Assembly: GCA_015069575.1 (NCBI GenBank)
Contig: SVIH01000001.1
Location: 114,385 to 178,384, forward strand
DNA: 64,000 nt
Origin: Clostridiales bacterium
GTDB taxonomy: Bacteria > Bacillota > Clostridia > Christensenellales > QALW01
Direction: 5' to 3'
This document shows, in pieces, positions 1,741 through 31,492 of the stretch (within the stretch, counting starts at the first letter, position 1; the number at the start of each line of letters is the position of its first letter). Position numbers and translations under genes: made by a program. The notes beneath the pieces were generated by a model, which ran no database searches, was not told where the DNA came from, and was given only the letters and a program-made list of their open reading frames with translations.

Positions 1741-1858
1741 AAAACAATCTCCTTCATAATAATATAGTAATAGTATAGACAAAAGGATAATTTTTGTCAA
1801 TAAAAAATATTTGAAATATTCATATTTTATCTATCATATTATTTTTTGAGGTGTTTTT

Positions 1859-2608: not shown

Positions 2609-2736
2609 ATATTATTAAATTTCACAAATAAACCAAACTTGTAACACAAAAAATAATTATAATAAAATAGTAATATTTTCAAAATTTTCCACATATATAT
2701 TATTGAAAATAATTTACATAACACGGGGGCATATTT

Positions 2737-3375
2737 ATGGTTCAACCAACAAACAATAGGATAATTTTATGCGGAACTGCAACGGAAAATCCAATATTTA
2801 GTCACGAAGTATTTGGTGAAAGTTTTTATATTTTCAAATTAGAGGTAAAACGATTATCAGGTCAAAGTGATATTTTGCCAATAATGATTTCTGAACGACT
2901 TGTTTTAAACGAAGATATTATTATGGGTAAAAGATATTTAATTGAGGGACAATTGCGATCATATAACATAATAACTGATAATAAAAGCAAATTACAGTTG
3001 CAAACATTTGCCCGTGAAATTTCTATAGATGAAACGGGAGATGATATAAATCAAATTGAATTTAATGGGTTTATCTGCAAAACACCGGTTTATCGTGTAA
3101 CACCTTTTGCAAGAGAAATTGCGGATGTTTTAATTGCTGTAAATCGTGCTTATGGCAAAAGTGATTATATACCGTCAATTTGTTGGGGAAGAAACGCTAG
3201 ATATTGCCAACAATTAAATGTAGGTGATTCAATTCATATTGAAGGCAGGCTTCAATCTAGAGAATACCAGAAAAAATTAGATGATAATTCTATAATTAAT
3301 AAAATTGCATATGAGGTTTCTGTTTCAAAATTATCAGTTGATAAAGATGAAAATAAAGAATTATGTGAAGAATAA
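2737..3375 (+). CDS. SSB/PriB-like protein with two tandem OB-fold-like halves
   Basis: Two internally similar halves, each ending in G(Q/R)L(R/Q)S(Y/RE)... (IEGQLRSYNI / IEGRLQSREYQKK), as in SSB OB folds. There is no canonical acidic DDDIPF tip. Confidence 0.45.
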   Translation: MVQPTNNRIILCGTATENPIFSHEVFGESFYIFKLEVKRLSGQSDILPIMISERLVLNEDIIMGKRYLIEGQLRSYNIITDNKSKLQLQTFAREISIDETGDDINQIEFNGFICKTPVYRVTPFAREIADVLIAVNRAYGKSDYIPSICWGRNARYCQQLNVGDSIHIEGRLQSREYQKKLDDNSIINKIAYEVSVSKLSVDKDENKELCEE

Positions 3376-3400
3376 AAGGCAACATAATGTTGCCTTTTTA
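3375..3400. terminator. Bidirectional intrinsic terminator between convergent genes
   Basis: aaaggcaaca-taa-tgttgccttt stem-loop flanked by A and T runs. Confidence 0.5.
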
Positions 3401-5062: not shown

Positions 5063-5188
5063 ACTGTTTGTACCTCAAAAATTTTTTTATATTATATCAC
5101 TAAACCACATTAATTGAAAGAAATATTTATAAAAAAGCAATTTTTAAGTAAAAAATAAAAAAGTTTAGCAAAAAATGGTCTTTTACGG

Positions 5189-5217
5189 TTGCTTAAAATA
5201 TTCATGTGTGGTATAAT
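5189..5217 (+). promoter_or_regulatory. Sigma-A type promoter for tig
   Basis: TTGCTT, 17 nt, then TGgTATAAT (extended -10), about 45 nt upstream of the tig start. Confidence 0.45.
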
Positions 5218-5259
5218 TATCCACGATTGTATTGATAATTTACTTGGAGGTAAATATTT

Positions 5260-17897: not shown

Positions 17898-19082
17898 ATG
17901 GATAAAGCGTTTTATAAAAATAAAAAATTACATTTCCTTGAGGGCATGCGGGCTTTAATGGCATTCAATGTTATTCTATGTCATTTTTGTTCTGTATACT
18001 ATCCACAAATGATGACAAAAGCTGCAGCAGAAAATGCGAATAATTTTTTAAGCATTTTTGCAACAACTCCTTTAAGTGTAACAATAAATGGAAACATTGC
18101 TGTTGTGTATTTTATGGCTTTGACAGGTTTTCTTGTAGGAATGAGTACGTTTACTAAACCAAAACTTTCGACTAAAGAATTGTTTAGAAAATCATTTTTA
18201 AGATACACAAGATTACTTCCGATTGTTTTGATTGCAACTCTTTTTACATATATTACAATGATATGTAATTTGCAAAAGCATCTATTAATTACAGATCCAC
18301 AAGCAGATTTAGATCATATAAGCAGATATTGTAATTTTGATCCTACGATACCTTCGCTTATTAATAATATTTTTATTAAACCTTTTATTATTGATAGCGA
18401 CTATATTGGTCCTTTCTGGACAATAAAATATGAATTTATAGGATATATATTGGTTTTGTTTGCTTCAACAATTCTACAAAACTTACGTTGGAGAAGAATT
18501 TTATATATTCTTATTGGCATTGCTGCGCCACTTATTTGTTTTGTTATAAATCGCTCTTTAGATATTCATTATACAATATTTATGATTGGTCTGCTTGTTG
18601 CCGATTTAGAGTATAACACCAATGAAACTATACTAAGCAAATATTATAATAAATTTTTAGATAGTAAGGTTTATATTGTAGTCTGTTTAATACTTGGTAT
18701 ATATCTATCCTGCTGCCCAATGTTTTCAACGCCATTATATTCTTTACTTTTAAAAATACCAGGCGTATCAGGTACGCTTATTCGTGGTATTGGTATTTGT
18801 TTATTTATAATCGTTCTATTAAAAACAAAATACTTACAACGAATTTTGAGTTGGAAGCCGCTTCTTGTTTTAGGAAAATGTTCTTTTGAAACTTACGCAC
18901 TCCATTGGCCTTTAATGATGACTGTTGAAGCAGCTTTGTTTTTGGCATTTAGACAATCCCTCTCATATGATGTATCTGCACTTCTTGCTTTTGTTATCTC
19001 ATTACCAGTATTTTACGCATCATCTTTAGGTCTGAATTATTTTATTAATTATACAAAACACAGAAGAAATAATAAAACATAA
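17898..19082 (+). CDS. Acyltransferase family 3 membrane protein (O-acyltransferase)
   Basis: N-terminal FLEGMRALMAFNVILCHF (R/H motif) and about 10 TM segments, typical of the OatA/acyltransferase_3 family. Confidence 0.7.
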   Translation: MDKAFYKNKKLHFLEGMRALMAFNVILCHFCSVYYPQMMTKAAAENANNFLSIFATTPLSVTINGNIAVVYFMALTGFLVGMSTFTKPKLSTKELFRKSFLRYTRLLPIVLIATLFTYITMICNLQKHLLITDPQADLDHISRYCNFDPTIPSLINNIFIKPFIIDSDYIGPFWTIKYEFIGYILVLFASTILQNLRWRRILYILIGIAAPLICFVINRSLDIHYTIFMIGLLVADLEYNTNETILSKYYNKFLDSKVYIVVCLILGIYLSCCPMFSTPLYSLLLKIPGVSGTLIRGIGICLFIIVLLKTKYLQRILSWKPLLVLGKCSFETYALHWPLMMTVEAALFLAFRQSLSYDVSALLAFVISLPVFYASSLGLNYFINYTKHRRNNKT

Positions 19083-19085
19083 AAT

Positions 19086-19114
19086 AAAGCGAGGTAAAAA
19101 TACCTCGCTTTTAA
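19086..19114. terminator. Bidirectional intrinsic terminator between convergent genes
   Basis: aaagcgaggta-aaaa-tacctcgcttt perfect hairpin flanked by A and T runs. Confidence 0.55.
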
Positions 19115-19120
19115 ATTTAT

Positions 19121-19939
19121 TTATTTAATAAAATTTTTTCCGTTTACACTACCACCGTCACAAAGAATATCTACACCTGCTAAATAGCCGTTTCTTTCAT
19201 CTGCCACTGTAGCAATAGCATATCCAAGTTCTTCTGGTAAACCCATGCGCTTTTCTGCTGTTGTTTTTAAAAGCATAGAACCTTCTTCAGCTTCCATTTT
19301 GCCCATATCTGTATCGATAAGTCCAGGACTTAATGAAACAACACGGATATTCTTTGCGCCATATTCAAACGCACATTTAGACGCATACCATATTACGAAT
19401 TTTTTAGATAATCCATAAGCAAGACCTGAGGATTTATATTCATCTTTAATCATTTTACTAAGTTTTAATGATTTCTTTAAGAAATGATCCTCGTTTGTTT
19501 CTGCTAAAGCAAAGGTTTTTTTATTTGCAAGGAAATCAGGAAGTATGTATGCAGAATTAGATGAAATATCAACAATAACACCGCCTTCATTCATTCTTTT
19601 TGAAAATTCCTGGTTAACATAAACTGTACCTAGAGCATTAACACGCATTAACTGTTCAGGCTTTGCCATAGCAGGTGAGAGACCTGCTGAATGAATTACA
19701 TTTTTAATTACACCAAGACTTGCGGCAAACTCAGCAAGAGCAATAACATCCTCTCTTTTTGATGTATCACAAGTTTTAGCATAAGCCTCATAACCAAGTT
19801 CGGTTAATTCTTTAACGGCTGCTTCAAGCTTAGAAAGAGTGCGACCTGTAACAACTATTATTTTTTCTTTAGGCATAAATTTTGCAGCAGCAAGACCCAT
19901 TCCGCTTCCGCCACCGGTAATTACACATACACTTTTCAT
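19121..19939 (-). CDS. Short-chain dehydrogenase/reductase (SDR) family oxidoreductase
   Basis: ITGGGSGMGLAAA Rossmann motif, and an AYGLSKKF segment that fits the catalytic YxxxK motif. Confidence 0.85.
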   Translation of the reverse strand: MKSVCVITGGGSGMGLAAAKFMPKEKIIVVTGRTLSKLEAAVKELTELGYEAYAKTCDTSKREDVIALAEFAASLGVIKNVIHSAGLSPAMAKPEQLMRVNALGTVYVNQEFSKRMNEGGVIVDISSNSAYILPDFLANKKTFALAETNEDHFLKKSLKLSKMIKDEYKSSGLAYGLSKKFVIWYASKCAFEYGAKNIRVVSLSPGLIDTDMGKMEAEEGSMLLKTTAEKRMGLPEELGYAIATVADERNGYLAGVDILCDGGSVNGKNFIK

Positions 19940-20089
19940 AATATTCTCCTTTTATCTTTTTGTTTTGCCAATTATATCATATTAAATGTAAAAAGTAAAT
20001 TCTTTTTTTTATGCAAAAAACAGTATAAATCACATTGTTTTACAAATACTAACAATACAAATTTTTAAAGTAAGGAGAATTTTTAATAT

Positions 20090-20632
20090 ATGAAAGCCAC
20101 AGGAATAGTTAGAAGAATTGATGAACTTGGTAGGGTAGTAATACCTAAGGAAATAAGACGTACTCTCCGTTTTCGTGAAGGCGATCCGCTTGAAATATTT
20201 ACAGATAAAGATGGGGGAGTTGTTTTAAGAAAATATTCAATAATGGGTGATATTGAAGAGCATGCAAAAGAATTTGCTGAATCAATACATCACACATTAG
20301 GTCATACAACGGTTATTACCGATAAAGACATCGTAGTTGCAGCGGCAGGAAAAGGTAAAAAAGATTTAGTTGGTAAAAGCCTTTCTAAAGAACTACAAAA
20401 ACGAATTGATTCACGCAGGGGAATATTAACTGATAAAAAAACAAAAGATATGCCCATTCCTATTATTGAATTTGATCAAACTGAATACAATTCACAATGT
20501 ATTTTGCCAATTTTAGGTGCAGGTGATGTTTTAGGTGCGGTAGTTGTAACTTCAAATGACGATTCTTTAAGTCAGGTAGCTTACAAAAATGCAGAAACAG
20601 CTGCTTATTTTTTAGGTAGCCAGATAGAATAA
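20090..20632 (+). CDS. spoVT: Stage V sporulation protein T (AbrB-type N-domain plus GAF-like C-domain)
   Basis: MKATGIVRRIDELGRVVIPKEIRRTLRFREGDPLEIF swapped-hairpin domain, 180 aa total, GGAG RBS. Confidence 0.85.
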   Translation: MKATGIVRRIDELGRVVIPKEIRRTLRFREGDPLEIFTDKDGGVVLRKYSIMGDIEEHAKEFAESIHHTLGHTTVITDKDIVVAAAGKGKKDLVGKSLSKELQKRIDSRRGILTDKKTKDMPIPIIEFDQTEYNSQCILPILGAGDVLGAVVVTSNDDSLSQVAYKNAETAAYFLGSQIE

Positions 20633-20661
20633 AGAGGATGAAATCATTCATCCTCTTTTTT
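20631..20661 (+). terminator. Intrinsic terminator after spoVT (overlaps the last codons of the convergent recombinase gene)
   Basis: aaagaggatgaa-atca-ttcatcctcttt followed by a T run. Confidence 0.5.
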
Positions 20662-21690
20662 GTCTCTTAATTTAATTGATTTAGCGGCAATTCGCCTGTT
20701 TTCTTCTGCTTGTGCGGCATAATGACGCCTTGTTGTATTAACGTCTTTATGTCCTAAAACATCTGCAACAAGGTAAATATCACCTGTTTCCTGATATAGT
20801 GTTGTACCATAGGTTGAGCGTAATTTATGTGGCGTAATATGCTTTAATGGCGTTATAATTGAAGAATACTTTTTAACCAAATTCTGCACAGCGCGCGTTG
20901 AAATTCTTGTGCCTTGCAGTGATAAAAAGAATGCAGGGGAGTCTTCTGCACCTTTCATTATGTGACGTGTTTCATTGTAATCATTTAATGCTTCAGCAAC
21001 CTCATCACTTAAGTATAAAACAGATTGATTTCCGCCTTTTCTTGTTACACGAATACTTAAATTTCTAAAATCAACATCATCAACATTCAACCCAATACAT
21101 TCACTTATACGAATTCCAGTACCTAAAAATAGGGTAATAAGAGCTAAATCACGCTTTTTTGTTAATGCATGAAAATGTTTTTGTTTTTCACTTAATCCGT
21201 CACCAGATTCAATTTCATCAAGAAGTTTAACTATTTCATCTACATCAAGACGAATGATTGCCTTTTCATGAATTTTAGGCAAATCAACAAGTGATGCAAC
21301 ATTTGATTCCAAATCTCCAGATTTATAAAAATACTTAAACATCATTCGAATTGATGCAATTTTTCGCGCTTTACCGTTTTCGTGATTAGCAACAAGTTTT
21401 TTATCATCGTTTTCATATAGGGAAATATGATTTATGTAATTTTCAATATCATGAACATTTAACCGTTTTAAATCATCTAATGTTATGTTTTTTATTTCTT
21501 TATTTAACTCATTAGATAAAAATATAAAAAACAATCTTAAATCATATGCATAATTTAAACGAGTAAGCGGACCTGTAGTATTATTAATACCAATAAATAA
21601 TATTTTACAAAATTCAGGTAATTCATTTAAAACACCTTTTAATTTTTCATTTGCAGAATAAGTTCTTGATAAATAATAAGAATCAACCAT
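20644..21690 (-). CDS. Tyrosine site-specific recombinase, Xer-like (348 aa)
   Basis: All catalytic positions are visible: GIRISE (Arg), VTRKGG (Lys), PHKLRST (His-x-x-Arg), LGHKDV (His) and RRHY (Tyr). An N-terminal SAM-like core-binding domain is present. The gene lies just outside the left direct repeat of the prophage. Confidence 0.85.
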   Translation of the reverse strand: MVDSYYLSRTYSANEKLKGVLNELPEFCKILFIGINNTTGPLTRLNYAYDLRLFFIFLSNELNKEIKNITLDDLKRLNVHDIENYINHISLYENDDKKLVANHENGKARKIASIRMMFKYFYKSGDLESNVASLVDLPKIHEKAIIRLDVDEIVKLLDEIESGDGLSEKQKHFHALTKKRDLALITLFLGTGIRISECIGLNVDDVDFRNLSIRVTRKGGNQSVLYLSDEVAEALNDYNETRHIMKGAEDSPAFFLSLQGTRISTRAVQNLVKKYSSIITPLKHITPHKLRSTYGTTLYQETGDIYLVADVLGHKDVNTTRRHYAAQAEENRRIAAKSIKLRDKKEDE

Positions 21691-21745
21691 TTTAATTTAC
21701 ATCCTTTATTTTTAAAATTTTTATAAAAATAGGGTGCTTTGCAAT

Positions 21746-22708
21746 TTATAAACTATTCGCAAAACACAAGTTTTCCTGTTGGTTGTCCCAACGTGTATTT
21801 ATAAATTTTTTAAATTCAGGATGCATAGCAACTTCGTCGCGCCTGCATTGTTTTTCACTTTTCCAAGGTTTTGTAAGGAAGAAAAATTTTTTTTCACAAT
21901 GTTTTATAAAAACATCGTCAATAGATACACCATTTACCAAATCAAAATAAATAAGATTAGCAGCAAGCATTGAATCTTTATTCTTAAATTCAAATTCTAA
22001 ACGAGACCAATAGGGAAGACGCTCGTCAGTAATTTTCTGTTCTGTTCTTTTATCATAAATTCTAACAAAAGAAGAATGATTACGCTTACCAAAGTAAAGG
22101 GTCCAACCATTACGAATTTTACCATTTAAAAATTCAATTTCAGGTTTTAAAACCATACCTTGAGAATAAAACATACAGGATAAATCACCATAATTATCTT
22201 TGCAAAGATTTTCAAAAAAAGGTGTAAAATTATCTTTACAAAGGTCAATACGTGTACACTTAAAGGATTTATCACCATTATAAATAGGCGAAAAAAGACC
22301 ATAAGCCTTTATCTTGTAATGTAAATCAAGCAAAAACTGAAACATAACACCATTAGAGTAAAGCATACCACAAGCCGAACCTGTAAGAGAAAGAACAGAT
22401 ATTTCAGAATGACAACCACGAATCCAAGAGCATTTAAAAGTGCTATGTGTATTTTGACAAATATACATACGTTCATAGCCACCTTTAGAAACAAACTCGC
22501 CATTGTCCATTATAGCAGAGAAATTAAATCCGTAAGGTTGCAAAATAGATAATATTTCAGAATCATTAAAATTTTTAAAAGAAAAAGTTAGAGTATCAAT
22601 TAAAGTAGGACCATATTTAATATCATTTTCATAAAGATAATCAAGATTTAATTCACGTCTATCGCAATAAATTTCTTCATTCTTTTTGTAAAAATAACCT
22701 ACAGACAT
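21746..22708 (-). CDS. Rolling-circle replication initiator, Rep_trans-like (5-prime part of a rep gene apparently split by integration)
   Basis: Motifs resemble the Rep_trans/RstA family: TLIDTLTFSF near the N-terminus, CTRIDLCKDNF, and LYFGKRNHSSFVRIYDKRTEQ. The ORF ends inside the direct repeat (..ENLCFANSL*). Confidence 0.6.
   Translation of the reverse strand: MSVGYFYKKNEEIYCDRRELNLDYLYENDIKYGPTLIDTLTFSFKNFNDSEILSILQPYGFNFSAIMDNGEFVSKGGYERMYICQNTHSTFKCSWIRGCHSEISVLSLTGSACGMLYSNGVMFQFLLDLHYKIKAYGLFSPIYNGDKSFKCTRIDLCKDNFTPFFENLCKDNYGDLSCMFYSQGMVLKPEIEFLNGKIRNGWTLYFGKRNHSSFVRIYDKRTEQKITDERLPYWSRLEFEFKNKDSMLAANLIYFDLVNGVSIDDVFIKHCEKKFFFLTKPWKSEKQCRRDEVAMHPEFKKFINTRWDNQQENLCFANSL
21750..21774. 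repeat. Left copy of the 25-bp direct repeat (putative attL core)
   Basis: aaactattcgcaaaacacaagtttt is identical to 27115..27139; the flanking bases differ on both sides. Confidence 0.9.
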
Positions 22709-22729
22709 ATAAAACCACCTTAAAAATAT

Positions 22730-23100
22730 ATTAGGGGCATACCATAAGGTTGGCTTATACTATGCCGTACGGCATACCCCTTGCGCATTTATAGTATATT
22801 AAAAAAATAAGTGTTTGTCAATAGTTTTTTTAAAAGTGGGGCTTGTGTTACTCACAGCCCCACGAGATAGGAACCGAATACCTACTTAAGTATATACTTA
22901 AGTATGTCGTATAAAGCAATTTAAAGCAATAAAGAGACAGTTCGCCACTACGTTGGGTATCAAATAGGAATACCCACATAGCAAAAGGGAATATAGCCTA
23001 AAAACAGTTTTAAAAGGCTATGTACAATAAAACAACGTCATACAATAGATAAACCCTGTACTTTATATATTGCTTGACAGTAAGCCAAGCAATTAAGAAC
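22730..23100 (-). other. Hairpin-rich intergenic region of the element (candidate packaging signal and/or replication origin)
   Basis: Noncoding and visibly richer in G+C than the flanks. It holds perfect palindromes at 22761..22776 (16 nt) and 22883..22904 (22 nt). Stem-loops lie at 22836..22863, 22954..22976, 22993..23021 and 23070..23092. GGCATACC recurs at 22736 and 22771. Confidence 0.5.
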
Positions 23101-23140
23101 AAAAAAATAGCATAGGCGCCGTATCAAAACGGCCGCCTAT
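23101..23140 (-). terminator. Intrinsic terminator after the Zot-like gene
   Basis: Minus strand ataggcggccg-ttttgata-cggcgcctat hairpin (one bulge) followed by a T7 run. Confidence 0.55.
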
Positions 23141-23153
23141 ACTATTTTCTAAA

Positions 23154-23807
23154 TTATTTAACATTAAGATAATTCATTGTAGTAAACCATTCTTTACCAT
23201 TAGGGCAGGGAAGAACAGACATATTTATTGGCTCAAAGGAATCAAAATACTTATAATACAAAGGTCTAAAACAAAAAATAAATTGTTTTGGTTGAAATGG
23301 TAACAGCTGAAACAAAATTGATTTCCAATAATGTTGATATGCTAATTGTTTTGTTTGCTCATCAATACCTATTCTTTTATAAACACAACGTGCAAAAGAT
23401 AAAGGACCTATTTTACGGATAACCCATATCTCTTCGGCCAGATCCCTTAACTGTTTATCTGTATCATCCCAAGTTTGACTAAATAAATCAATATCCTGAT
23501 GTTCGTGACCGTGTTTCTTAAAATTTTCAATTACCCCAAAGGGAAGAGATGCAAATTTTCTACTATTAAAAGACAAACCTGATTCATCTAAAGCAATATA
23601 AGAATATTCAGGCAATTTAAACTTACCAAGCATAGAATCGTCAAAGTAATTAGATAGACCATAATTAGTTTCAAAATTACTAAAATGATACTTATATTTA
23701 ATACGTTTTAAATTAAGAAAATTCTTCTTCCGAAGATGCTTTTTCATAATTTTACAGGCAATAGTAGTTTTGCCAGAACGGGGAACACCAACAAAATATC
23801 TAATCAT
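23154..23807 (-). CDS. Zot/pI-like P-loop NTPase (filamentous phage assembly ATPase)
   Basis: The N-terminal MIRYFVGVPRSGKTT Walker A at the extreme N-terminus and the YIALDESG Walker B are typical of the Zot family. The start overlaps the upstream small ORF by ATGA. Confidence 0.6.
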   Translation of the reverse strand: MIRYFVGVPRSGKTTIACKIMKKHLRKKNFLNLKRIKYKYHFSNFETNYGLSNYFDDSMLGKFKLPEYSYIALDESGLSFNSRKFASLPFGVIENFKKHGHEHQDIDLFSQTWDDTDKQLRDLAEEIWVIRKIGPLSFARCVYKRIGIDEQTKQLAYQHYWKSILFQLLPFQPKQFIFCFRPLYYKYFDSFEPINMSVLPCPNGKEWFTTMNYLNVK

Positions 23808-23992
23808 TTTTTACCCCCAAAGATACAACGTAACAATGCAAAAACGTTACAAATAACGCAAAGAAGAATTACAGCTCCTATCATATATTCAATCATTAAA
23901 CCATAATCCCACGTTGCATTACTGCCGTATATAACCCGATAAAAATCAGCTTCACCTAAAACACGTCTTAAAGCCTCAATTAAACTTTCCAT
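23804..23992 (-). CDS. Small single-pass membrane protein (62 aa)
   Basis: Hydrophobic helix MIGAVILLCVICNVFALLRCIF with a basic end GGKK; translationally coupled to the Zot-like gene. Confidence 0.5.
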   Translation of the reverse strand: MESLIEALRRVLGEADFYRVIYGSNATWDYGLMIEYMIGAVILLCVICNVFALLRCIFGGKK

Positions 23993-23993
23993 A

Positions 23994-24065
23994 TTACCAC
24001 CTCATAAAAATTTGTAGACAAAGTATCATAAAAATACAAATTAACAAAAAAACAGTCATGCTCAT
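23994..24065 (-). CDS. Tiny hydrophobic ORF (23 aa: MSMTVFLLICIFMILCLQIFMRW)
   Basis: Hand-translated. The ATG overlaps the previous stop (ATGA), and the stop lies 1 nt before the next ATG. Below the track length cutoff. Confidence 0.25.
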   Translation of the reverse strand: MSMTVFLLICIFMILCLQIFMRW

Positions 24066-24172
24066 AAACTTGTAAACCCCTTAATCATAAGAAAAATAAA
24101 CCCTAGCATAAAAACAGCAAAAAGATAATTAAAACTAGAAAAAAAAATTTCAAGACAAGGCAAGATAATCAT
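24062..24172 (-). CDS. Tiny hydrophobic ORF (36 aa: MIILPCLEIFFSSFNYLFAVFMLGFIFLMIKGFTSL)
   Basis: Hand-translated. The start overlaps the previous stop by 1 nt (TGATG). Confidence 0.35.
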   Translation of the reverse strand: MIILPCLEIFFSSFNYLFAVFMLGFIFLMIKGFTSL

Positions 24173-24318
24173 CAAGAACGCGCTCCCTTCCAGAAAACAG
24201 AAATAACCATTCCGAAAATAGATAAAGCAACAAAAAACCAACCATAATAAATTGTAAAGCCTTCATATTCAAAAGTTATACCATTTAAAAATGTAAAAAA
24301 AGATATTACTAAATTCAT
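24172..24318 (-). CDS. Small membrane ORF (48 aa: MNLVISFFTFLNG...GWFFVALSIFGMVISVFWKGARS)
   Basis: Hand-translated. One clear TM helix with a basic C-terminus, in series with the neighbouring ORFs. Confidence 0.4.
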   Translation of the reverse strand: MNLVISFFTFLNGITFEYEGFTIYYGWFFVALSIFGMVISVFWKGARS

Positions 24319-24338
24319 TATAAATTGCAATGCCTGGA

Positions 24339-24566
24339 TCATTCGCTATATCCTCCCAAAGAAATCAAGATTTTAACAAGTGCTATAGCAATAACAAACA
24401 TTCCACATGAACCAATAATTGAGGGAATTTCAGGAGAAGTAAAAAGATCAATAGAATCTAATGCTCCCAATAATATTTCAAAAAAATTAACTATACTTTG
24501 TAAAGTATGAGTAATAATAGACCAAATGCTAGTAAAAAAATCAGCAACATTTTCAAAAAAAGACAT
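24339..24566 (-). CDS. Small membrane protein (75 aa), in the gVI-like position
   Basis: Two hydrophobic segments. The start is directly adjacent to the stop of the 374-aa ORF. Confidence 0.5.
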   Translation of the reverse strand: MSFFENVADFFTSIWSIITHTLQSIVNFFEILLGALDSIDLFTSPEIPSIIGSCGMFVIAIALVKILISLGGYSE

Positions 24567-25691
24567 TTAATCACCTTTTTTACCTTTCGATCGTTTATTA
24601 CCTGAAGATGAATATGTATTAGAGCGAGATGATACAAATTGAGCAAGACCAAATAAGAAACCTAGACAACCTAAACCAAGAGACATATATAAAACCACCC
24701 TTAAAAACGGTAGTCTTAACACATGATCATCAACAAAAGCAGATAAACCACGCATTGTAGAGACTAATTCAGGATATAAGGAGAGAACTGTAAACGAAAA
24801 ATCAACACTATTATCTTTTAATAAGTTTGAAGAAATTTCATTTATAGCAGATTCTTTATCAAAGAAAATATCCGACGTAGAATTATCAAAACTATTGTAA
24901 TTATTACCGCCTGTACCATCAATAATAGAACCAGCAACAGCATTTTGAACATCTTCAACAGTAACTTCAGTAAAATTTAATGGAGATAATGTATATTCAG
25001 TGTAAAAATAAGGATAATTATAATTACCATCAAGACGAACACCAACGCCACCAGAATTACCGAACCTGAAGAAAAAACCACAAATAAAGCCTGTAGATTT
25101 AAAATTAACAGTTAAATCAGCCTTATAAGTTAAAGAAGATGGATTAACAGTTAAAGAATCATTTTTTAAAGTACATGGAATTTGAGAATAATTTTCAATA
25201 GAACCAACATAAAAAGCAAAATAAGGATTATTTTCAAAAGAAGACTGCCAGAATTCGCCGTTATTAATTTTAACTGTAAGCATAATAGTAAAAGTAATGT
25301 CTTTATTTAAAAATGCATTAGATATAAAAAATTCTGGTGAAAGTTTTGTTGTTGGTACAGATAAAGAAAAATTATTAACAAAATTATATTTTCCTGAATA
25401 ATCAGGTTGAATAGGTGCAGTATTTTTAAAAGTAGTAATTAATTCTGAATTAGTAGAAACGTCATTTTCATATGTAAAAAAATTAGAATAAGATAAAGAA
25501 CCATATCCATCACCCAATTCATAACCAATTTGTATTTGATTCCGATACTTATCCCACAAACCAAATGTTAATTTATCTGATGCAGCATGCGCAGGCAAAG
25601 ACCAGGAAAGAAAAACAAATATAAAAACAAAAGCCGATGAAATAAGGGCTTTTAAATATTTTTTATTTTTAAAAGTTTTAAACAAAAACAT
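24567..25691 (-). CDS. Secreted, C-terminally anchored protein (374 aa), in the gIII-like adsorption/minor coat position
   Basis: Signal peptide ending SLPAHA/AS, a long Asn/Ser/Thr-rich beta-type ectodomain, then the C-terminal TM LGLGCLGFLFGLAQFV and a basic tail KRSKGKKGD. Confidence 0.55.
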   Translation of the reverse strand: MFLFKTFKNKKYLKALISSAFVFIFVFLSWSLPAHAASDKLTFGLWDKYRNQIQIGYELGDGYGSLSYSNFFTYENDVSTNSELITTFKNTAPIQPDYSGKYNFVNNFSLSVPTTKLSPEFFISNAFLNKDITFTIMLTVKINNGEFWQSSFENNPYFAFYVGSIENYSQIPCTLKNDSLTVNPSSLTYKADLTVNFKSTGFICGFFFRFGNSGGVGVRLDGNYNYPYFYTEYTLSPLNFTEVTVEDVQNAVAGSIIDGTGGNNYNSFDNSTSDIFFDKESAINEISSNLLKDNSVDFSFTVLSLYPELVSTMRGLSAFVDDHVLRLPFLRVVLYMSLGLGCLGFLFGLAQFVSSRSNTYSSSGNKRSKGKKGD

Positions 25692-25701
25692 AAAATCACC
25701 T

Positions 25702-25734
25702 AAAAAAAGGGAAAACTACATATGCAGTTTTCCC
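25702..25734 (-). terminator. Intrinsic terminator immediately after the coat-like gene
   Basis: Minus strand gggaaaact-gcatatgt-agttttccc followed by a T7 run, then the AGGTGA RBS of the 374-aa ORF. Confidence 0.6.
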
Positions 25735-25740
25735 AGAGAA

Positions 25741-25923
25741 TTATGAACGTACAAGACGTTGAAAAATACCGATAGCAAAAGAAATAACTGGCATTGCTAT
25801 TACAAGAATAAGCAACGCAGGATTACTAACTACGGTTTCAAGTACATCACCCATCCAAGTCATTGCCTGGGTAAAATATGTACCGATTGAAGCTAACATA
25901 GATTCCATAGCACCTTCAGCCAT
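25741..25923 (-). CDS. Major-coat-protein-like small protein (60 aa)
   Basis: Acidic/amphipathic N-part (MAEGAMESMLAS...), hydrophobic helix ALLILVIAMPVISFAIGIF, basic end QRLVRS. The ATG at 25923 has an AGGAG RBS; the track start at 25941 contains that RBS. Confidence 0.55.
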   Translation of the reverse strand: MAEGAMESMLASIGTYFTQAMTWMGDVLETVVSNPALLILVIAMPVISFAIGIFQRLVRS

Positions 25924-25986
25924 ATGGCATGCTCCTTTCATATTAAATTTTACTTTTATATATAAAATTGCAATTTTAATTAAAAA

Positions 25987-26112
25987 TTATAAATCAATAT
26001 CATTTTCTTTAAACTTTTTTAAAATCTTTTGTAAAGTAAAATAACAATACAATATAGAAAAATTAATAAGAAATAAATATAAACCTAAAATAAAATAAAT
26101 AAAAGTTTCCAT
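25987..26112 (-). CDS. Tiny membrane ORF (41 aa: METFIYFILGLYLFLINFSILYCYFTLQKILKKFKENDIDL)
   Basis: Hand-translated; AAGGTGA RBS 5 nt upstream. A competing 45-aa ORF at 26085..26222 (TAATG coupling to the 83-aa ORF) overlaps it in another frame. Confidence 0.35.
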   Translation of the reverse strand: METFIYFILGLYLFLINFSILYCYFTLQKILKKFKENDIDL

Positions 26113-26221
26113 AAAATCACCTTATAATTTCTAAATACAAAATAAATTAAAAAAAAATCAAGAATAAAAAGAAAAGAAAAGAAAATAAAAGAAAATAACA
26201 AAATATTTCCATAAATAACCA

Positions 26222-26473
26222 TTAAAATAGTTCTACAGAAGAAATTTCTTTTAAAGGTGCATAAACCGAAAGACCCAAAGAACCTTTAGAAGAATAGGGA
26301 ACAACGTCAAAGAGATCAACTAAACCGATAGGGTAAAGCGTTTTTAATTTTTCAATGTCAATATCCGAATTATAAAAAGTACTTAATTCTTCACCATATT
26401 GAGTTTGAAAGACTAACAAATACCCCTTATCTTTAATCTCACGTAATTCATTAACTTTTAATTTTGCTTTCAT
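26222..26473 (-). CDS. 83-aa soluble protein in the gV (ssDNA-binding protein) position
   Basis: Only size and position (between the regulator and the coat gene) support this call. No motif was recognised. Confidence 0.35.
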   Translation of the reverse strand: MKAKLKVNELREIKDKGYLLVFQTQYGEELSTFYNSDIDIEKLKTLYPIGLVDLFDVVPYSSKGSLGLSVYAPLKEISSVELF

Positions 26474-26681
26474 TTAAAATCACTCCTTTATAATATAATT
26501 TATTTTCAATAATTAAAAAATTATGAAAGCCATAAAAAGATAAAATAGAATATAAAGAATTATTTAAAGTAAAAAAACTATAATTTTCATAACGATGCAA
26601 CGTAGATTTAGAAATGTTCATGCGTTCTGATGCACGTCTTAAAGATAAACAACGTTCTAAACGTAAATCTTTTAAATTCAT
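26451..26681 (-). CDS. Small HTH (XRE-like) DNA-binding protein
   Basis: MNLKDLRLERCLSLRRASERMNISKSTLHRYENYS helix-turn-helix. The ATG at 26681 has an AGGTG RBS; the track start is a GTG inside the RBS. Confidence 0.6.
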   Translation of the reverse strand: MNLKDLRLERCLSLRRASERMNISKSTLHRYENYSFFTLNNSLYSILSFYGFHNFLIIENKLYYKGVILNESKIKS

Positions 26682-26690
26682 AAAAAACAC

Positions 26691-27134
26691 CTAAAGTTTA
26701 GAAAAATCATTAAAAGAAGAATTAAAAGAATTATCAGAAGAACTATTAAGGATAGCATTATTGAAAAAATCAGGGGAATAGTAATCGTTATTGCATTTTT
26801 CAACAATTTCAAGAACTTGTTCAAGAGATATTTCACCATCCATACAAACAGAACTTATAAAATCCCAGTAAACATCAGGAACAGATAATTCAAGACAGGG
26901 TATATCATTCATAATATCATTTGTATTACTACGATAATATACATAAATTGTTTTTTTAACATTATCAATACGGAACTGACGACCATCGGAATAAATTAAA
27001 TCTTGTAAACGATAGACAATTTGTTTAAATGTAAGGTTAGAAAGAACCTTTGGAACAAGGGCAGAGACAAGACGTTTAACAGTTTCATCGTTTTTGTTTT
27101 TATCCCAAAAAAACAAACTATTCGCAAAACACAA
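26691..27134 (-). CDS. ORF of 147 codons lacking its own ATG and RBS; probably the 3-prime part of the split rep gene
   Basis: The only start candidate is a TTG inside the direct repeat, with no Shine-Dalgarno sequence. Its first residues CFANSL duplicate the last residues of the Rep ORF in the same frame. Confidence 0.5.
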   Translation of the reverse strand: MCFANSLFFWDKNKNDETVKRLVSALVPKVLSNLTFKQIVYRLQDLIYSDGRQFRIDNVKKTIYVYYRSNTNDIMNDIPCLELSVPDVYWDFISSVCMDGEISLEQVLEIVEKCNNDYYSPDFFNNAILNSSSDNSFNSSFNDFSKL

Positions 27135-27139
27135 GTTTT
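27115..27139. repeat. Right copy of the 25-bp direct repeat (putative attR core)
   Basis: Identical to 21750..21774. Confidence 0.9.
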
Positions 27140-27149
27140 GCGAATAGTT
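27116..27149. repeat. Perfect 34-bp palindrome (15-bp arms, 4-nt centre): candidate recombinase core site; also usable as the spoIIP terminator hairpin
   Basis: aactattcgcaaaac-acaa-gttttgcgaatagtt. On the minus strand it is followed by tgttttttt. Confidence 0.9.
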
Positions 27150-27190
27150 AAGTATATTTTAAGCCAAAAATAAGGATTTGTCAATATAAT

Positions 27191-28021
27191 TTATAATATT
27201 TTATTAATTGCCTGCGCAATAATTTCCGTGCTGTTTTTTGCTTGTTGTAAATCGTTTCTTTCATTACCGATTTCAATTAAAATACATTTGTCTGATAAAT
27301 GTTGATTTAATCTTGCACTTTTTATAAAAATATCTTTTGCTAAATCAGGAAAAATTAAATTTATTTCATTATTAAGTTTTTCTGCAAATAAATAATTTTC
27401 TTTATAGTTTGGTTTTTCTTTATATTTAGTGCCGTTTGCTACTACGAACCTTATAAATGCATATTCTTTATTTAATTTTTTTGCATAATTTTTACCTGTT
27501 TGTTCAGAAAAAGCATCTCTGTGTAAATCAATATAAATATCGTAGTTTTTACCGTGTTTATTAATGTTTTTTAAGCTTGTATCATACGCATAATCAAAAC
27601 CTTCAGAAACATTATCACTTTTATCATGATAAACAATATATCCGTATTTTTCAAGGTGTGTTTTTAATGCTTCACCAACTGCAATAACATTATATTTTTC
27701 GTCAAATGTTCTGCCTGTATCTGTTTCTATATAATTTTTAGTTCCTTTATAATAGGCTTCATCGTTATGAGTATGATATATTAAAATGCTTAAAGGTTTT
27801 TCGGTTGGTTCAGGTGTAATTATAATTTTAGGCGTATATGTATTTAATGTATAATCGTTATCAATTATTGTTGCCTGTTCGCTTTTTCCACCTAAAAAAC
27901 ATAAAATTAAACTAAATAAAAGCATAAATACAACTGTTATAAATACAACTCTGCGCAAAATATATACTTTTCTCTTCTCTTTAAGCCGTAACCTACTTGT
28001 TTTTTCTATTTGTTTGTTCAT
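27191..28021 (-). CDS. spoIIP: Stage II sporulation protein P family (SpoIIP-like amidase/peptidase)
   Basis: N-terminal TM anchor, ILIYHTHNDEAY motif and DLHRDA, characteristic of the SpoIIP family. Confidence 0.6.
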   Translation of the reverse strand: MNKQIEKTSRLRLKEKRKVYILRRVVFITVVFMLLFSLILCFLGGKSEQATIIDNDYTLNTYTPKIIITPEPTEKPLSILIYHTHNDEAYYKGTKNYIETDTGRTFDEKYNVIAVGEALKTHLEKYGYIVYHDKSDNVSEGFDYAYDTSLKNINKHGKNYDIYIDLHRDAFSEQTGKNYAKKLNKEYAFIRFVVANGTKYKEKPNYKENYLFAEKLNNEINLIFPDLAKDIFIKSARLNQHLSDKCILIEIGNERNDLQQAKNSTEIIAQAINKIL

Positions 28022-28030
28022 TTCAATACC

Positions 28031-28119
28031 TTTTTGTAATATTTTTGTAACAATATTATATTTTTTAGTAAAAAAATTGTCAATACAATCAGAACATTTG
28101 TTACAAAATCTTTACAAAA
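28031..28119. promoter_or_regulatory. Four copies of TTTTGTAA/TTACAAAA bracketing the promoter (candidate operator set)
   Basis: tttttgtaa at 28031 and 28042; ttacaaaa at 28101 and 28112. Spacing within each pair is 11 bp, and the two pairs are in inverted orientation. Confidence 0.35.
28055..28083 (-). promoter_or_regulatory. Consensus sigma-A type promoter upstream of spoIIP
   Basis: Minus strand TTGACA, 17 nt, then TATAAT, both hexamers perfect. Confidence 0.55.
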
Positions 28120-28122
28120 TCA

Positions 28123-28150
28123 AAAGACAGCAGATTTTACTGCTGTCTTT
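28123..28150 (-). terminator. Intrinsic terminator of rnhA (overlaps its stop codon)
   Basis: aaagacagcag-atttta-ctgctgtcttt perfect 11-bp stem with a U-rich tail on the minus strand. Confidence 0.5.
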
Positions 28151-28586
28151 CCTTCTTACAATCTTTAATTGCATCAGTTGCTAACTTATCGCAACGGTTA
28201 TTAAACTCGTTATCGGCGTGACCCTTAACCTTTATAAAATTTATTTTATGTTTATTATGGTTATCATACAGAATTTGCCACAAGTCTTTATTTGGTATAT
28301 CGTTTTCACCTTTTTTAAAGTCTTTTTTCTTCCAGCCATATATCCATTTTTCGTTAAATGCATTAACAAGATATGCGCTATCAGAATAAAGATCAACTTC
28401 GCAAGGTTCTTTTAATAAATTAAGTGCTTCGATGGCAGCGGTTAATTCCATACGATTATTAGTAGTTAAATCGCAATAACCACTAATTTCCTTTTTAAAT
28501 TCATTATAAAACAGAATTGCACCCCAGCCGCCAACACCTGGATTGCCTGAACAGGCACCGTCTGTATAAATAGTTACTTTTTTCAT
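28137..28586 (-). CDS. rnhA: Ribonuclease HI
   Basis: IYTDGACSGNPGVGGWGAIL, TNNRMEL, DSAY, KGHADNEFNNRCDKLA (DEDD residues). Confidence 0.92.
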   Translation of the reverse strand: MKKVTIYTDGACSGNPGVGGWGAILFYNEFKKEISGYCDLTTNNRMELTAAIEALNLLKEPCEVDLYSDSAYLVNAFNEKWIYGWKKKDFKKGENDIPNKDLWQILYDNHNKHKINFIKVKGHADNEFNNRCDKLATDAIKDCKKERQQ

Positions 28587-29825
28587 TTAATTTCCTTGTG
28601 CTTTATCGTAAGCCTGCCAAACAGGTTGATATTGATTTTTTATTTTAACGTGTTCTTCATAAGTTTTTGAATATGCAACAGCTCCTGTGTATGGATCAGT
28701 AAGAGTAAAATATAAATATCCACCGTTTAAAATTTCGTTATCCGGATATAAAACTGCTTCAATGGCATCTTTTCCTGGATTACAAATCGGCCCTGCAGGA
28801 ATACCTGTAACAACATATGTATTATACGGCGACTGCGTTTTTAATTGATCCGCTGTTAAAACAAGTTTTTTAATATCTAAAGCATATTGAACGGTAACAT
28901 CAGATTCTAATTTCATACCTTTTTTAATTCTGTTATGAAACACAGCTGATATTTTTTTAAAATCTTCCCCTTTTCCCTCTTTTTCAATTAATGAAGCAAG
29001 AGTAATTACCTGATGCATAGAAAGTTTTAATTCGTCAGCGCGTTCGGTATATTTTACAGTATAAACGCTGTTTAATCTTGATAACAGTTTTTTAATAACA
29101 ACATCATTTGAAGAACCGGCATAAAACTCGTATGTATCAGGAAACAAATATCCTTCAAGATTATATTTCAAATTACCGTTATCATAAAGTGGTTTAACAA
29201 AATAATAATCAGAATAAGCTTTAGCATTTTTACATTCATTTAAGAAGCTATCGACAGAAGAAATTACACCTGCAGATTTTAACTGTTCAGCAAAATCTTC
29301 AACGGTCATACCTTCAACAAGCGTAACGCTTACAACTTTAGCTGAAGTACTTGATTTTGTAATAACATCTAAAATATCCTGAACGCTCATAGTTCTGTCA
29401 AGAACATATTCTCCGTTTTGTATTTTAGAAGAAACGCTTGTGAAATCTGCAAGAAGTTTTATTCCTAATGATGATTTAATTAATTTTGCATCTTCTAACT
29501 TTGTGGCTACATATGACATTGATGCACCTTCATTTATAGTGAATAAAACAGGTGTTTTATCCCTTTTATCATATGAACCAAACAAACTATTAAGCACAAT
29601 AGATATTGCACATGTAAAAATAGTAATAACAAGTAAAAAGCTTATAAGATATATTGACCATGGTCTTAAAATTTGCCATGTTTTTTTAGTATTTTTTCCT
29701 GTTCCTAAAAAATTACCAAACCATAATAACACTTTAGTTTTACTATTTTTTATAAATTCTGCAAAATTATCTTTTATTTGCATGAAATCTATTTTTTTTA
29801 AATTAAATTTGTTTTTTCTTTTCAT
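28587..29825 (-). CDS. mltG: Endolytic murein transglycosylase MltG (YceG-like)
   Basis: N-terminal TM, LysM-like FTINEGASMSYVATKL, and SPYNTYVVTGIPAGPICNPG catalytic region. Confidence 0.85.
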   Translation of the reverse strand: MKRKNKFNLKKIDFMQIKDNFAEFIKNSKTKVLLWFGNFLGTGKNTKKTWQILRPWSIYLISFLLVITIFTCAISIVLNSLFGSYDKRDKTPVLFTINEGASMSYVATKLEDAKLIKSSLGIKLLADFTSVSSKIQNGEYVLDRTMSVQDILDVITKSSTSAKVVSVTLVEGMTVEDFAEQLKSAGVISSVDSFLNECKNAKAYSDYYFVKPLYDNGNLKYNLEGYLFPDTYEFYAGSSNDVVIKKLLSRLNSVYTVKYTERADELKLSMHQVITLASLIEKEGKGEDFKKISAVFHNRIKKGMKLESDVTVQYALDIKKLVLTADQLKTQSPYNTYVVTGIPAGPICNPGKDAIEAVLYPDNEILNGGYLYFTLTDPYTGAVAYSKTYEEHVKIKNQYQPVWQAYDKAQGN

Positions 29826-31492
29826 ATTTCAATAATCATAGGCAAAATCATAGGAGTTCTTTTTGTTTTTGAATAAAGGTAATCCTTTAATTGATGCCTT
29901 ATTTCATTTTTTATATATGACCAATCACGAAGTTTATCAGCACGGATATCTTCAATCAATTCCTGAACTATCTGCTTTAAATCGTGAATAAGTTCTTCGT
30001 TTTCTTTAACATAAATAAAACCGCGTGAAATAATATCGGGTTCTGTTAAAAGCGAACCATCTGAACTTGAAAGTGTTATACACACAACAATTAAACCGTC
30101 TTGTGATAAAACACGCCTATCCCTTAAAACAACGTTTCCTACATCACCGATTCCAAGACCATCTACCATAACAACGCCACTGGGAACATTGCCATTATGT
30201 TTAGCTTCCTTTTTACTGATTTCAAGCACATGACCAAGTTCAGGCATAAAAATATTGTTAGATTTCACACCTACTTTTTCAGCAAGTAACGCGTGTTGCA
30301 TTAAATGACGATATTCGCCATGAACAGGCATAAAATATTTTGGTTTAGTTAACGAAAGAATAAGCTTAAGTTCTTCTTTGCAAGCATGCCCTGAAACATG
30401 AACTGTTTCAAGAGCTTCGTAAATAACCACAACACCTAAACGATATAAATTATTTATAACGCGATATACCATTTTTTCATTTCCGGGAATTGGTGATGCT
30501 GAAATAATAACCATATCGCCTTTTGTTAGTTTTAATCTGGAATGATCTCCTGTAGCCAATCTTGAAAGACCGCTCATAGGTTCACCCTGAGAACCTGTAG
30601 TAATAATAACAACATTTTCTTTGGGCATATTTTCCGCTTTTTCAGGTGTTATTATTGATTTTGGATCAACTATAAGTTCGCCAAGTTCTGCAGCAATTTT
30701 TGAAACATTTTCCATGCTTCTGCCTAAAAAGCAAATTTTTCTTTTATATTTTTCAGCACAATCAACAATCTGTTGAATTCTGTGCACATTACTTGCAAAG
30801 GTAGCAATAATTATTCTTTTATCGCTTCCTTCGTCAAAATATTTTTCAAAACATTCGCCAACCTTACTTTCACTCATTGTAAAGCCTTCACGCTCAGCGT
30901 TTGTACTATCAGACATTAATAATAATACACCTTCTTCGCCCAAACGTGAAAAGGTAGCCAAATCAATAACATCACCATCAACAGGTGTATAATCAACCTT
31001 GAAATCACCTGTATGTATAACAGTTCCAACAGGCGTATGAATAGCCAATGCAACAGCACCTGCAATAGAATGATTTGTTTTAATAAATTCTATTGAAAAA
31101 CAGCCTATATTAAGAGTATCTTTTGGTTGAATACAATTCATTTTTATTTTGTTTGGCATATTGTATTCTTTTAATTTGTTTTGAATAAGTGCTTGTGTTA
31201 ATCTTGTGCAATATATGGGTGCATTAATTTTCTGAAAAACATATGGTATTGCACCAATATGGTCTTCATGACCATGTGTAATAATAAACGCACGGAGTTT
31301 ATCTATATTTTTTTCAAGATATGTTACATCAGGTATAACAAGATCTATACCGTAAAGGTCTTCATTTGGAAACATTGAACCGCAATCTATTACAATTATA
31401 TCATTTCCATATTCAATAGCGGTCATATTTTTTCCGATTTCATCAACGCCGCCAAGTGAAATAATTTTTAATTTATGTTTAAGTTTTGACAC
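29822..31492 (-). CDS. rnj: Ribonuclease J
   Basis: Metallo-beta-lactamase THGHEDHIGAIPY, beta-CASP region, 556 aa. ATGA overlap with mltG. Confidence 0.92.
   Translation of the reverse strand: MSKLKHKLKIISLGGVDEIGKNMTAIEYGNDIIVIDCGSMFPNEDLYGIDLVIPDVTYLEKNIDKLRAFIITHGHEDHIGAIPYVFQKINAPIYCTRLTQALIQNKLKEYNMPNKIKMNCIQPKDTLNIGCFSIEFIKTNHSIAGAVALAIHTPVGTVIHTGDFKVDYTPVDGDVIDLATFSRLGEEGVLLLMSDSTNAEREGFTMSESKVGECFEKYFDEGSDKRIIIATFASNVHRIQQIVDCAEKYKRKICFLGRSMENVSKIAAELGELIVDPKSIITPEKAENMPKENVVIITTGSQGEPMSGLSRLATGDHSRLKLTKGDMVIISASPIPGNEKMVYRVINNLYRLGVVVIYEALETVHVSGHACKEELKLILSLTKPKYFMPVHGEYRHLMQHALLAEKVGVKSNNIFMPELGHVLEISKKEAKHNGNVPSGVVMVDGLGIGDVGNVVLRDRRVLSQDGLIVVCITLSSSDGSLLTEPDIISRGFIYVKENEELIHDLKQIVQELIEDIRADKLRDWSYIKNEIRHQLKDYLYSKTKRTPMILPMIIEI

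Follow-up and report, generated by a model that had tools for sequence, protein, structure and literature searches.

The stretch of DNA analysed here, referred to as the window, comprises 64,000 nt of contig SVIH01000001.1 of a Clostridiales bacterium (positions 114,385 to 178,384 of the forward strand, GCA_015069575.1) and carries a compact 5,365-bp element between two exact direct repeats. The element is very probably a phage of the inovirus type that was inserted at the dif site of the chromosome terminus, presumably by the Xer recombinase of its host. The phage attachment site (attP) lies within the coding sequence of rep, the gene for the replication initiator, at a domain boundary of the protein, and integration splits the gene. 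An initial annotation of this DNA had already proposed an inovirus-like prophage, a reading that is retained here; integration at dif through host Xer and the division of rep had no part in it.

Insertion of the element and division of the rep gene

The 25-bp repeat AAACTATTCGCAAAACACAAGTTTT is present at 21750–21774 and 27115–27139, a spacing of 5,365 bp, and the identity of the two copies ends abruptly without extension on either side. No third copy was found in the window with up to 3 mismatches allowed, and the chance expectation of such a repeat is 0 (none seen in 100 dinucleotide-preserving shuffles of the window), in agreement with the borders first proposed. One or other of the two junctions recurs in 17 independent metagenome contigs at 99.9–100% identity, and the prophage arrangement is therefore not an assembly artefact. 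The right copy of the repeat runs on into a perfect 34-bp palindrome with a 15-4-15 architecture (AACTATTCGCAAAAC-ACAA-GTTTTGCGAATAGTT, 27116–27149), which constitutes the right attachment site (attR) and an intact chromosomal dif-like site. In the left copy, a single arm and the centre are followed by 5 nt of the second arm before phage sequence takes over, such that the left attachment site (attL, 21750–21784) joins a chromosomal arm and the 4-nt centre to a degenerate phage arm. No tRNA gene was present as an integration target within 18000–30000, and no known RNA family reached gathering score within 20000–29000.

Five sister genomes (L079, L039, L091, L104 and L114) possess the arrangement SpoVT, xer, uninterrupted palindrome and SpoIIP with no prophage, and their recombinases are 81–95% identical to that of the window. 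In L079, which holds the 95% identical protein, both flanks of the window are recognisably contiguous across the empty site. Because these genomes keep xer and the palindrome in the absence of the phage, the element is inserted DNA and xer a gene of the host. The comparison with close relatives proposed at the outset thus returned uninterrupted sites, and the assignment to a Clostridia-type chromosome was borne out by the flanking SpoVT and SpoIIP genes and by relatives that are Clostridia metagenome-assembled genomes (MAGs).

The 5’ part of rep (21746–22708, minus strand) encodes 320 aa with the catalytic core of the Rep_trans family (Pfam, 1.1e-14, 55 bits against a cut-off of 29.6) and the tyrosine motif RIY218DK, and also matches phrog_453. 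This open reading frame (ORF) terminates at a stop codon in host DNA slightly beyond the repeat core. When the element is read as a circle, the frame crosses the attachment core into a 147-aa ORF at the far end of the element to give a protein of 460 aa, the 3’ part of the gene (26691–27114, minus strand) supplying a C-terminal domain of ~140 aa. The 320-aa ORF had been described as a complete rolling-circle initiator; its family was correctly recognised, and it is one of two halves of a single gene. The 3’ fragment has no Shine-Dalgarno (SD) sequence or other ribosome binding site of its own, and the two halves are still in frame and undamaged. Because attP lies inside rep, integration detaches the 140-aa C-terminal domain from the 320-aa core. 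Close homologs of the joined protein measure 449, 449 and 431 aa, align with 92–95% coverage and are conserved across the junction; they were the only ones among 5.8 billion proteins. Relatives with an intact rep reside on separate small contigs.

Structures of the RepD type align to the 320-aa part, including the catalytic tyrosine motif, with the whole fold contained in the 5’ part. The predicted model of a full-length Rep relative superposes over this core on the Rep_trans initiator 4CIJ (E 5.7e-13), continues through a low-confidence linker at the codons of the attachment site and ends in a separate α/β domain. A search with the joined 460-aa protein did not carry the Pfam Rep_trans match into its C-terminal part, a separate domain for which no significant relative was found, the best being ORF56 of pRN1 (E 0.19).

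The rep genes of the relatives L001 and L002 hold the core AAAACTTGTGTTTTGCGAA in the corresponding position, as does that of L126 with one mismatch. Within L002 the core is read in another frame, yielding KLVFCEV instead of NLCFANS; the DNA of the attachment site, not the peptide, is therefore the conserved feature. The full arm of the relatives’ attachment sites, GTTTTGCGAAGTGTT, is the exact arm of the host sites in the sister genomes L039, L079, L104 and L114.

The palindrome and its recombinase gene

The 348-aa tyrosine recombinase is encoded at 20644–21690 on the minus strand (Pfam Phage_integrase, 1.7e-32) and is a candidate catalyst for integration and excision of the element. XerS (NF003462) is its top NCBIfam model, matched over the full length with 176.5 bits, under the equivalog cut-off of 267; the equivalog cut-offs of XerC and XerD are missed as well, and among proteins of solved structure it is closest to XerA and XerD. 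Reconstruction of the empty site places the palindrome 60 nt from xer.

Species-representative genomes were scanned for the inner 24 nt of the palindrome with the 4-nt centre left free, which returned 100 loci, mostly in Christensenella and other Christensenellales, Lachnospiraceae and MAGs of gut Clostridia. Scanning metagenomes with the 25-mer added 5 more unrelated contexts, all of which extend to the full palindrome. Outside the fixed block, positions 1–6 of the arms vary among genomes yet stay complementary (87 of 101 at position 4, with 43 expected), a signal that is gone at positions 7–8. Because the covariation spans positions 1–6, the arms are symmetric over 15–16 nt, which is what two copies of one protein would lead one to expect, and the perfect symmetry of the site suggests a single recombinase protein. 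The site is upstream of the Xer homolog in all 42 loci that hold one, at a distance of 171 nt or less in 26 of these.

At a replication terminus, GC skew is expected to be positive on the left and negative on the right whichever strand is read. The left-minus-right difference in GC skew was above zero in 43 of 49 loci and, among the 40 with palindromic arms, in 38 (binomial 1.5e-9); the full expected sign pattern was present in 26–29 loci and the opposite pattern in 2, and long ORFs converge on the site across the surveyed loci. The site of Christensenella sp. Marseille-P2438, at ~2.27 Mb of 2.56 Mb, gave no terminus reading, the position of the origin not being known. From its conservation, covariation and location, the palindrome appears to behave as a chromosomal dif.

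Other small phages seem to occupy sites of the same class. L041 (Clostridia MAG CALBKX01, 1–5329) contains a complete microvirus (Phage_F capsid 5.6e-159, Rep 3e-99 and a pilot protein) between a degenerate palindrome at position 44 and a full palindrome at 5237, and has the appearance of a microvirus prophage in a dif of this class. In L115, which is a contig of 140 kb from that MAG, the sequence stops ~45 nt beyond the site it carries. Since a microvirus occupies it too, more than one kind of small single-stranded DNA (ssDNA) phage uses the site. Microviridae proviruses of Bacteroidetes reportedly reside at dif-like sites, with use of XerC/XerD said to have been proposed; L041 resembles them in its flanking full and degenerate palindromes, but its host is a Clostridia MAG and its site is the Clostridial palindrome. 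L068 (Christensenella MAG MGBC128010, 292–7550) is a weaker candidate than L041, in which a full palindrome and two degenerate copies delimit ~7.2 kb. It encodes a 333-aa P-loop protein with N-terminal transmembrane segments, a 573-aa protein with signal peptide and anchor, an HUH-like Rep of 225 aa (a weak match, E 0.002) and a DUF2726 protein, and is possibly a second, unrelated inovirus-like element at dif.

An ordinary bidirectional terminator was considered as the identity of the palindrome and discarded on its conservation across genera, the covariation of its arms, its linkage to xer and the insertion of two kinds of phage. The short core by itself is not diagnostic, because a few matches exist outside Clostridia, notably multiple copies in a Rikenellaceae MAG. 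In MAGs of that family (L089, L090, L101, L070 and L053) a longer palindrome that shares the TTCGCAAAAC/GTTTTGCGAA core was found, three or more copies being present in a single Bacteroidota MAG; the motif there is not a dif of single copy and perhaps represents another repeated element. The sites of the sister species L079, L104, L105 and L112 are non-symmetric (e.g. AACTATTCGC...GCGAAGTGTT) and look like hybrids of two arm variants, which may be traces that phages with the other arm variant left when they integrated and excised in the past.

On the far side of the palindrome from xer, a host promoter-like site (27156–27184, minus strand, from a consensus scan) appears to point through dif toward xer, and relatives with an empty site have kept its TTGACA box. 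Over 44 nt, the region around it (27153–27196, TTGACA-17-TAAAAT) shares 73% identity with the promoter-like phage region preceding rep (22790–22833). The prophage cuts this promoter-like element off from xer, which now lies 55 nt 3’ of the truncated rep with no terminator detected in between. The attR palindrome together with a phage-encoded T-run (TGTTTTTTTG, 27106–27149, minus strand) scores as an intrinsic terminator, a combination absent from both the circular phage and the empty host site. The reading of these two signals is speculative.

Gene content of the element

The element displays the layout of an inovirus, with 5,365 bp (inovirus range ~4.5–12 kb), coding on a single strand and a structured intergenic region. 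Every SD-bearing ORF between the repeats is on the minus strand, as first described, and the element is 88% coding; the original count of about 14 ORFs reduces to ~10–11 credible genes. The plus strand has a strong positive AT skew limited to 22–27 kb, meaning that the coding strand is T-rich. No recombinase was matched among the ORFs of the element with Pfam or PHROG profiles. Taken with the genes described below, the element is best read as a complete-looking, integrase-less filamentous phage genome of the inovirus type.

The morphogenesis ATPase of the pI/Zot type is a 217-aa P-loop protein (23154–23807, minus strand) that matches Pfam Zot at 21.0 bits (cut-off 20.3) and the Zot-like family phrog_197 at 6.8e-11, in keeping with its first assignment. 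Neither of the two outcomes that the initial annotation had named as speaking against it was observed, as this ORF and the 320-aa Rep ORF both have profile matches and close relatives carry the site uninterrupted. Its gene start is overlapped by an SD-preceded 62-aa ORF (23804–23992, minus strand) with a single transmembrane segment at residues 40–58, a possible membrane partner of the ATPase that is also predicted as a gene in independent contigs. Upstream follow a 56-aa ORF with two predicted transmembrane segments (24172–24342, minus strand) and a 75-aa transmembrane ORF (24339–24566, minus strand). The latter is a candidate minor virion protein of gVI size; the transmembrane ORF stood up from the earlier assignment, and its placement in the gVI family drew no profile match.

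The 374-aa ORF at 24567–25691 (minus strand) is predicted to be secreted and anchored, with a signal-like transmembrane segment at residues 15–33 and an anchor at 332–350, and is a candidate gIII-like adsorption protein. These two features had been recognised before; the family name assigned with them matched no Pfam or PHROG profile. Its N-terminal 257 aa are 90% identical to those encoded by the relative L002 (93% at the DNA level, L002 1052–1830 against window 24937–25701), whereas the Rep proteins of the two are only 39% identical, and the presumed host-recognition module looks to have been recently exchanged between the L002 phage and the element. Within the same gene, an in-frame SD and ATG occur at 24684–24706 on the minus strand (TTTTTAAGGGTGGTTTTATATATG, ATG at 24686, Met336), nearly matching the initiation regions of rep and of the gIII-like gene itself (repeat family D2). 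Initiation at Met336 could yield a 39-aa product comprising the transmembrane anchor and a basic tail, which recalls pX and pXI of the Ff phages, made from internal starts.

The 60-aa ORF at 25741–25923 (minus strand) has the pattern of a major coat protein, with an acidic N-terminus, one transmembrane segment and a basic C-terminus. The pattern is as originally noted, while membership of a coat family found no match in Pfam or PHROG. An intrinsic-terminator-like hairpin with a T-run (25709–25734, minus strand) lies 3’ of this gene, where one had been predicted. Further upstream, at 25987–26112 on the minus strand, is an ORF of 41 aa with a predicted transmembrane segment.

The 83-aa ORF at 26222–26473 (minus strand) is a candidate for the gV-like ssDNA-binding protein. 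Its AlphaFold2 model (predicted local distance difference test 63) has the order β1-β2-β3-α-β4-β5, a topology resembling the oligonucleotide/oligosaccharide-binding (OB) fold, and its top Foldseek neighbours are OB-fold ssDNA binders, none of which is significant (E 0.06 or worse). PrgE of pCF10 is among these top neighbours, with a template modelling score of 0.59–0.63. The ORF of gV size noted before is present; gV identity is plausible from the predicted fold, with a resemblance short of significance.

The ORF at 26451–26681 (minus strand) encodes a small helix-turn-helix (HTH) regulator of 79 aa, or 76 aa from an SD-preceded ATG. It matches phrog_8 at 1.7e-6, with HTH_31 (3.7e-5) and HTH_3 (1.7e-4) each slightly under the Pfam cut-off, and the regulator assignment holds.

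The 445-nt intergenic region between rep and the ATPase gene (22709–23153, minus strand) is a candidate location of the replication origins and the packaging signal. It was correctly described as hairpin-rich, folding as ssDNA with -69.3 kcal/mol compared with -37.8 kcal/mol for shuffles (z = -8.46). A promoter-like site close to consensus, TTGACA-17-TATACT, was found 5’ of rep at 22793–22821 (minus strand) by consensus scan.

A distant relative of the element was present in the contig L125 (Logan SRR16596998, 1–5743), which is inovirus-like, 5.7 kb in size and appears circular from a 30-nt terminal overlap. The order from Zot to Rep is that of the element, the Rep is 31% identical and the Zot match is faint. 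No dif half-site is present in L125, which appears from its sequence to be an episomal or differently integrating relative. Because the L125 circle measures 5.7 kb, 5.4 kb fits the full genome size of the group.

Integration model, alternatives and known systems

The reconstructed attP has in common with the host site one entire arm, the centre and, of the second arm, the inner 5 nt; the remaining 10 nt of its second arm agree with the host arm at only 5 positions. The intact palindrome after integration is on the side away from xer. The element looks like one of the integrative mobile elements that exploit Xer (IMEX) in having no integrase, a dif target, an attP that mimics dif and an intact dif regenerated on insertion. 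An ssDNA hairpin attP of the CTX type was dismissed, since the phage has one dif-like half-site only and lacks the paired inverted site of CTX.

In the proposed sequence of events, the host Xer recombinase (20644–21690) would insert the recombinase-less phage at the dif just upstream of its own gene. Recombination inside the 25-bp identity would leave a hybrid site beside xer and an intact dif on the far side, and because integration regenerates an intact dif, the host would retain its dimer-resolution site. Loss of the C-terminal Rep domain may cripple or alter replication initiation in the lysogen, and excision mediated by Xer would rebuild the 460-aa rep, making integration reversible. With Rep rebuilt, the genome could be replicated as a rolling circle, starting in the hairpin-rich region between rep and the ATPase gene; the 83-aa protein would coat the ssDNA progeny, which would be extruded as a filament through the pI/Zot-like ATPase and the small membrane proteins.

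Several observations weigh against this reading. With regard to the site, xer is within 400 nt in only ~40% of the surveyed loci with sufficient flank, the GC skew of the window itself is near zero on the left (-0.006; right -0.116), and its cumulative skew has its maximum ~13 kb to the left of the site. The skew of the window is compatible with a terminus region and weaker than the aggregate; the terminus assignment therefore rests mainly on the aggregate of other genomes. With regard to the genes, the ATPase is short, has no transmembrane segment and is barely over the Pfam cut-off, and the coat-, gIII-, gVI- and gV-like calls, several of them made from size and hydropathy, are without significant profile or fold support. 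Lastly, neither a circular attP junction nor an empty site was found in the same species, where all contigs are lysogens. Look-ups for the species were made by exact protein identity of Rep, Xer and SpoIIP and are biased toward identical lysogens, and a metagenome scan for the core returned sites of other species only. The circular junction that the initial annotation had suggested looking for was therefore not recovered, and because the same-species contigs are all lysogens, present mobility of the element in its own species is unproven.

These lysogens are a ground for the alternative that the element is a fixed prophage remnant, no longer mobile, which integrated once with truncation of rep and has since been kept as cargo or as domesticated genes. 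It occupies the same place in all 17 same-species contigs, which stem from several metagenomes, at 99.9–100% identity, the integrated rep is truncated, and no relatives were returned from the GenBank phage collection (blastn with the whole element) or from IMG/VR (scans for the 25-bp core, a 19-nt core and relatives of Rep). Against this, every gene is intact with an SD, no difference has arisen between the two 25-bp cores and the halves of rep remain in frame; relatives with an intact rep exist on separate small contigs and exact-protein look-ups favour identical lysogens. Fixation is on balance unlikely.

The uncertain structural gene calls bear on a second possibility, that the element is an integrated rolling-circle plasmid or a phage satellite which borrowed inovirus-like genes and makes no filamentous virions itself. 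Initiators of the Rep_trans type are typical of Gram-positive rolling-circle plasmids, and the marginal Pfam Zot match and the unverified structural calls would fit such an origin. Set against this, the PHROG Zot-like match reaches 6.8e-11, the full inovirus plan is present in canonical order, including a coat-sized transmembrane protein followed by a terminator and an adsorption-like protein with signal and anchor, and the size agrees with that of the circular relative L125; we consider a plasmid or satellite quite improbable. That the neighbouring recombinase is the element’s own integrase, the palindrome an ordinary att site and the true borders wide enough to include the recombinase gene is the least credible option, for although the gene directly adjoins attL and its product falls under the three Xer equivalog cut-offs, it lies outside the direct repeats, phage-free relatives keep it with the palindrome between the same host genes, and the pair of gene and site recurs in dozens of genera at a GC-skew switch with different flanking genes.

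Insertion of an integrase-less phage at dif has counterparts in the Vibrio IMEX, in which the filamentous phages and satellites CTXphi, VGJphi and TLCphi integrate via host Xer (PMC5357621, PMC4246890). TLCphi carries an attP with one arm and the central region of dif and a second arm that is degenerate, and insertion restores an intact dif to one side (PMC5357621, PMC4246890). The element is likewise integrase-less and inserted at dif, and its anatomy is closest to the TLCphi type (PMC5357621). It departs from the Vibrio elements in its host, a Gram-positive sporeforming member of the Clostridia, in its target, a perfect palindrome beside an XerS-like gene in place of an asymmetric XerC/XerD site, and in its initiator, which is of the Rep_trans type and contains the attP, such that integration splits the gene. 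A limited literature search found no report of IMEX outside Proteobacteria.

Xer systems with a single recombinase include XerS of streptococci and lactococci, XerH of epsilon-proteobacteria, XerA of archaea and XerL of Legionellales (PMC5357621, PMC1914069, PMC9765430). XerS, of ~350 aa, makes up one module with the terminus site directly next to which its gene lies (PMC1914069, PMC5357621), and this site, difSL, is 31 bp long with unequal arms and an 11-bp centre (PMC5357621). The Clostridial pair is similar in the adjacency of gene and site, in XerS being the top NCBIfam model and in the TTC..AAAA flavour of the arms, but the score reaches 176 bits against the cut-off of 267, the site is symmetric with a 15-4-15 architecture, and the hosts are Clostridia. 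In Legionellales, the attachment site of the mobile element LME-1 exposed an unrecognised dif with long uninterrupted inverted repeats and a single recombinase, XerL (PMC9765430). Here too, the attachment site of a mobile element appears to have revealed a previously unrecognised dif; xerL is more than 400 kb from dif in Legionella, whereas the present recombinase gene is adjacent, and LME-1 is not a filamentous phage.

Small filamentous phages without a secretin have been described in Firmicutes and Actinobacteria, among them the Enterocloster inoviruses, CAK1 and B5, and the Enterocloster prophages have direct-repeat flanks and form circles (PMC10061712). That description includes no integration mechanism, link to dif or split rep (PMC10061712), and a look for the att repeats of the Enterocloster inoviruses in its supplementary files returned no match to the palindrome site. 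The Rep protein shares its catalytic fold and RIY(N/D)K tyrosine motif with RepC/RepD of the pT181 family and the Geobacillus Rep (4CWC, 4CWE and 4CIJ); unlike these, it is phage-borne and has an additional C-terminal domain of ~140 aa, and the domain boundary doubles as attP.

The findings may be joined into one wider reading, in which many gut Clostridia resolve chromosome dimers with a dif module of a single XerS-like recombinase and a perfectly palindromic 34-bp dif in the upstream region of its gene, unrelated integrase-less ssDNA phages share this site as a landing pad, and splitting of rep acts as a lysogeny switch that turns the initiator off on integration and on again with excision. 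Users of the landing pad would be Rep_trans inoviruses, a microvirus and possibly an HUH-Rep inovirus, in hosts including Christensenellales and Lachnospiraceae. As a whole this reading is tentative, and we put it at somewhat short of an even chance. The Xer/dif module of gut Clostridia is apparently undescribed; a limited literature search, which is not proof of novelty, found no publications on the palindrome, its link to Clostridial xer or the split rep.

Little is known of the filamentous phages of Gram-positive anaerobes, and the way in which integrase-less ones become prophages has so far had no explanation. The locus offers a testable answer, the capture of the host Xer/dif machinery, and indicates a dimer-resolution module in abundant gut Clostridia, in parallel to the exposure of XerL/dif in Legionella by LME-1. 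The dif-like site may serve as a marker for small prophages overlooked by detectors based on integrases or tRNA genes, and the 34-bp site with its recombinase is a potential site-specific integration tool for genetically hard Clostridia. For the phages themselves, an attachment site at the domain boundary of rep suggests that integration state and replication competence are physically coupled, which would be new for IMEX.

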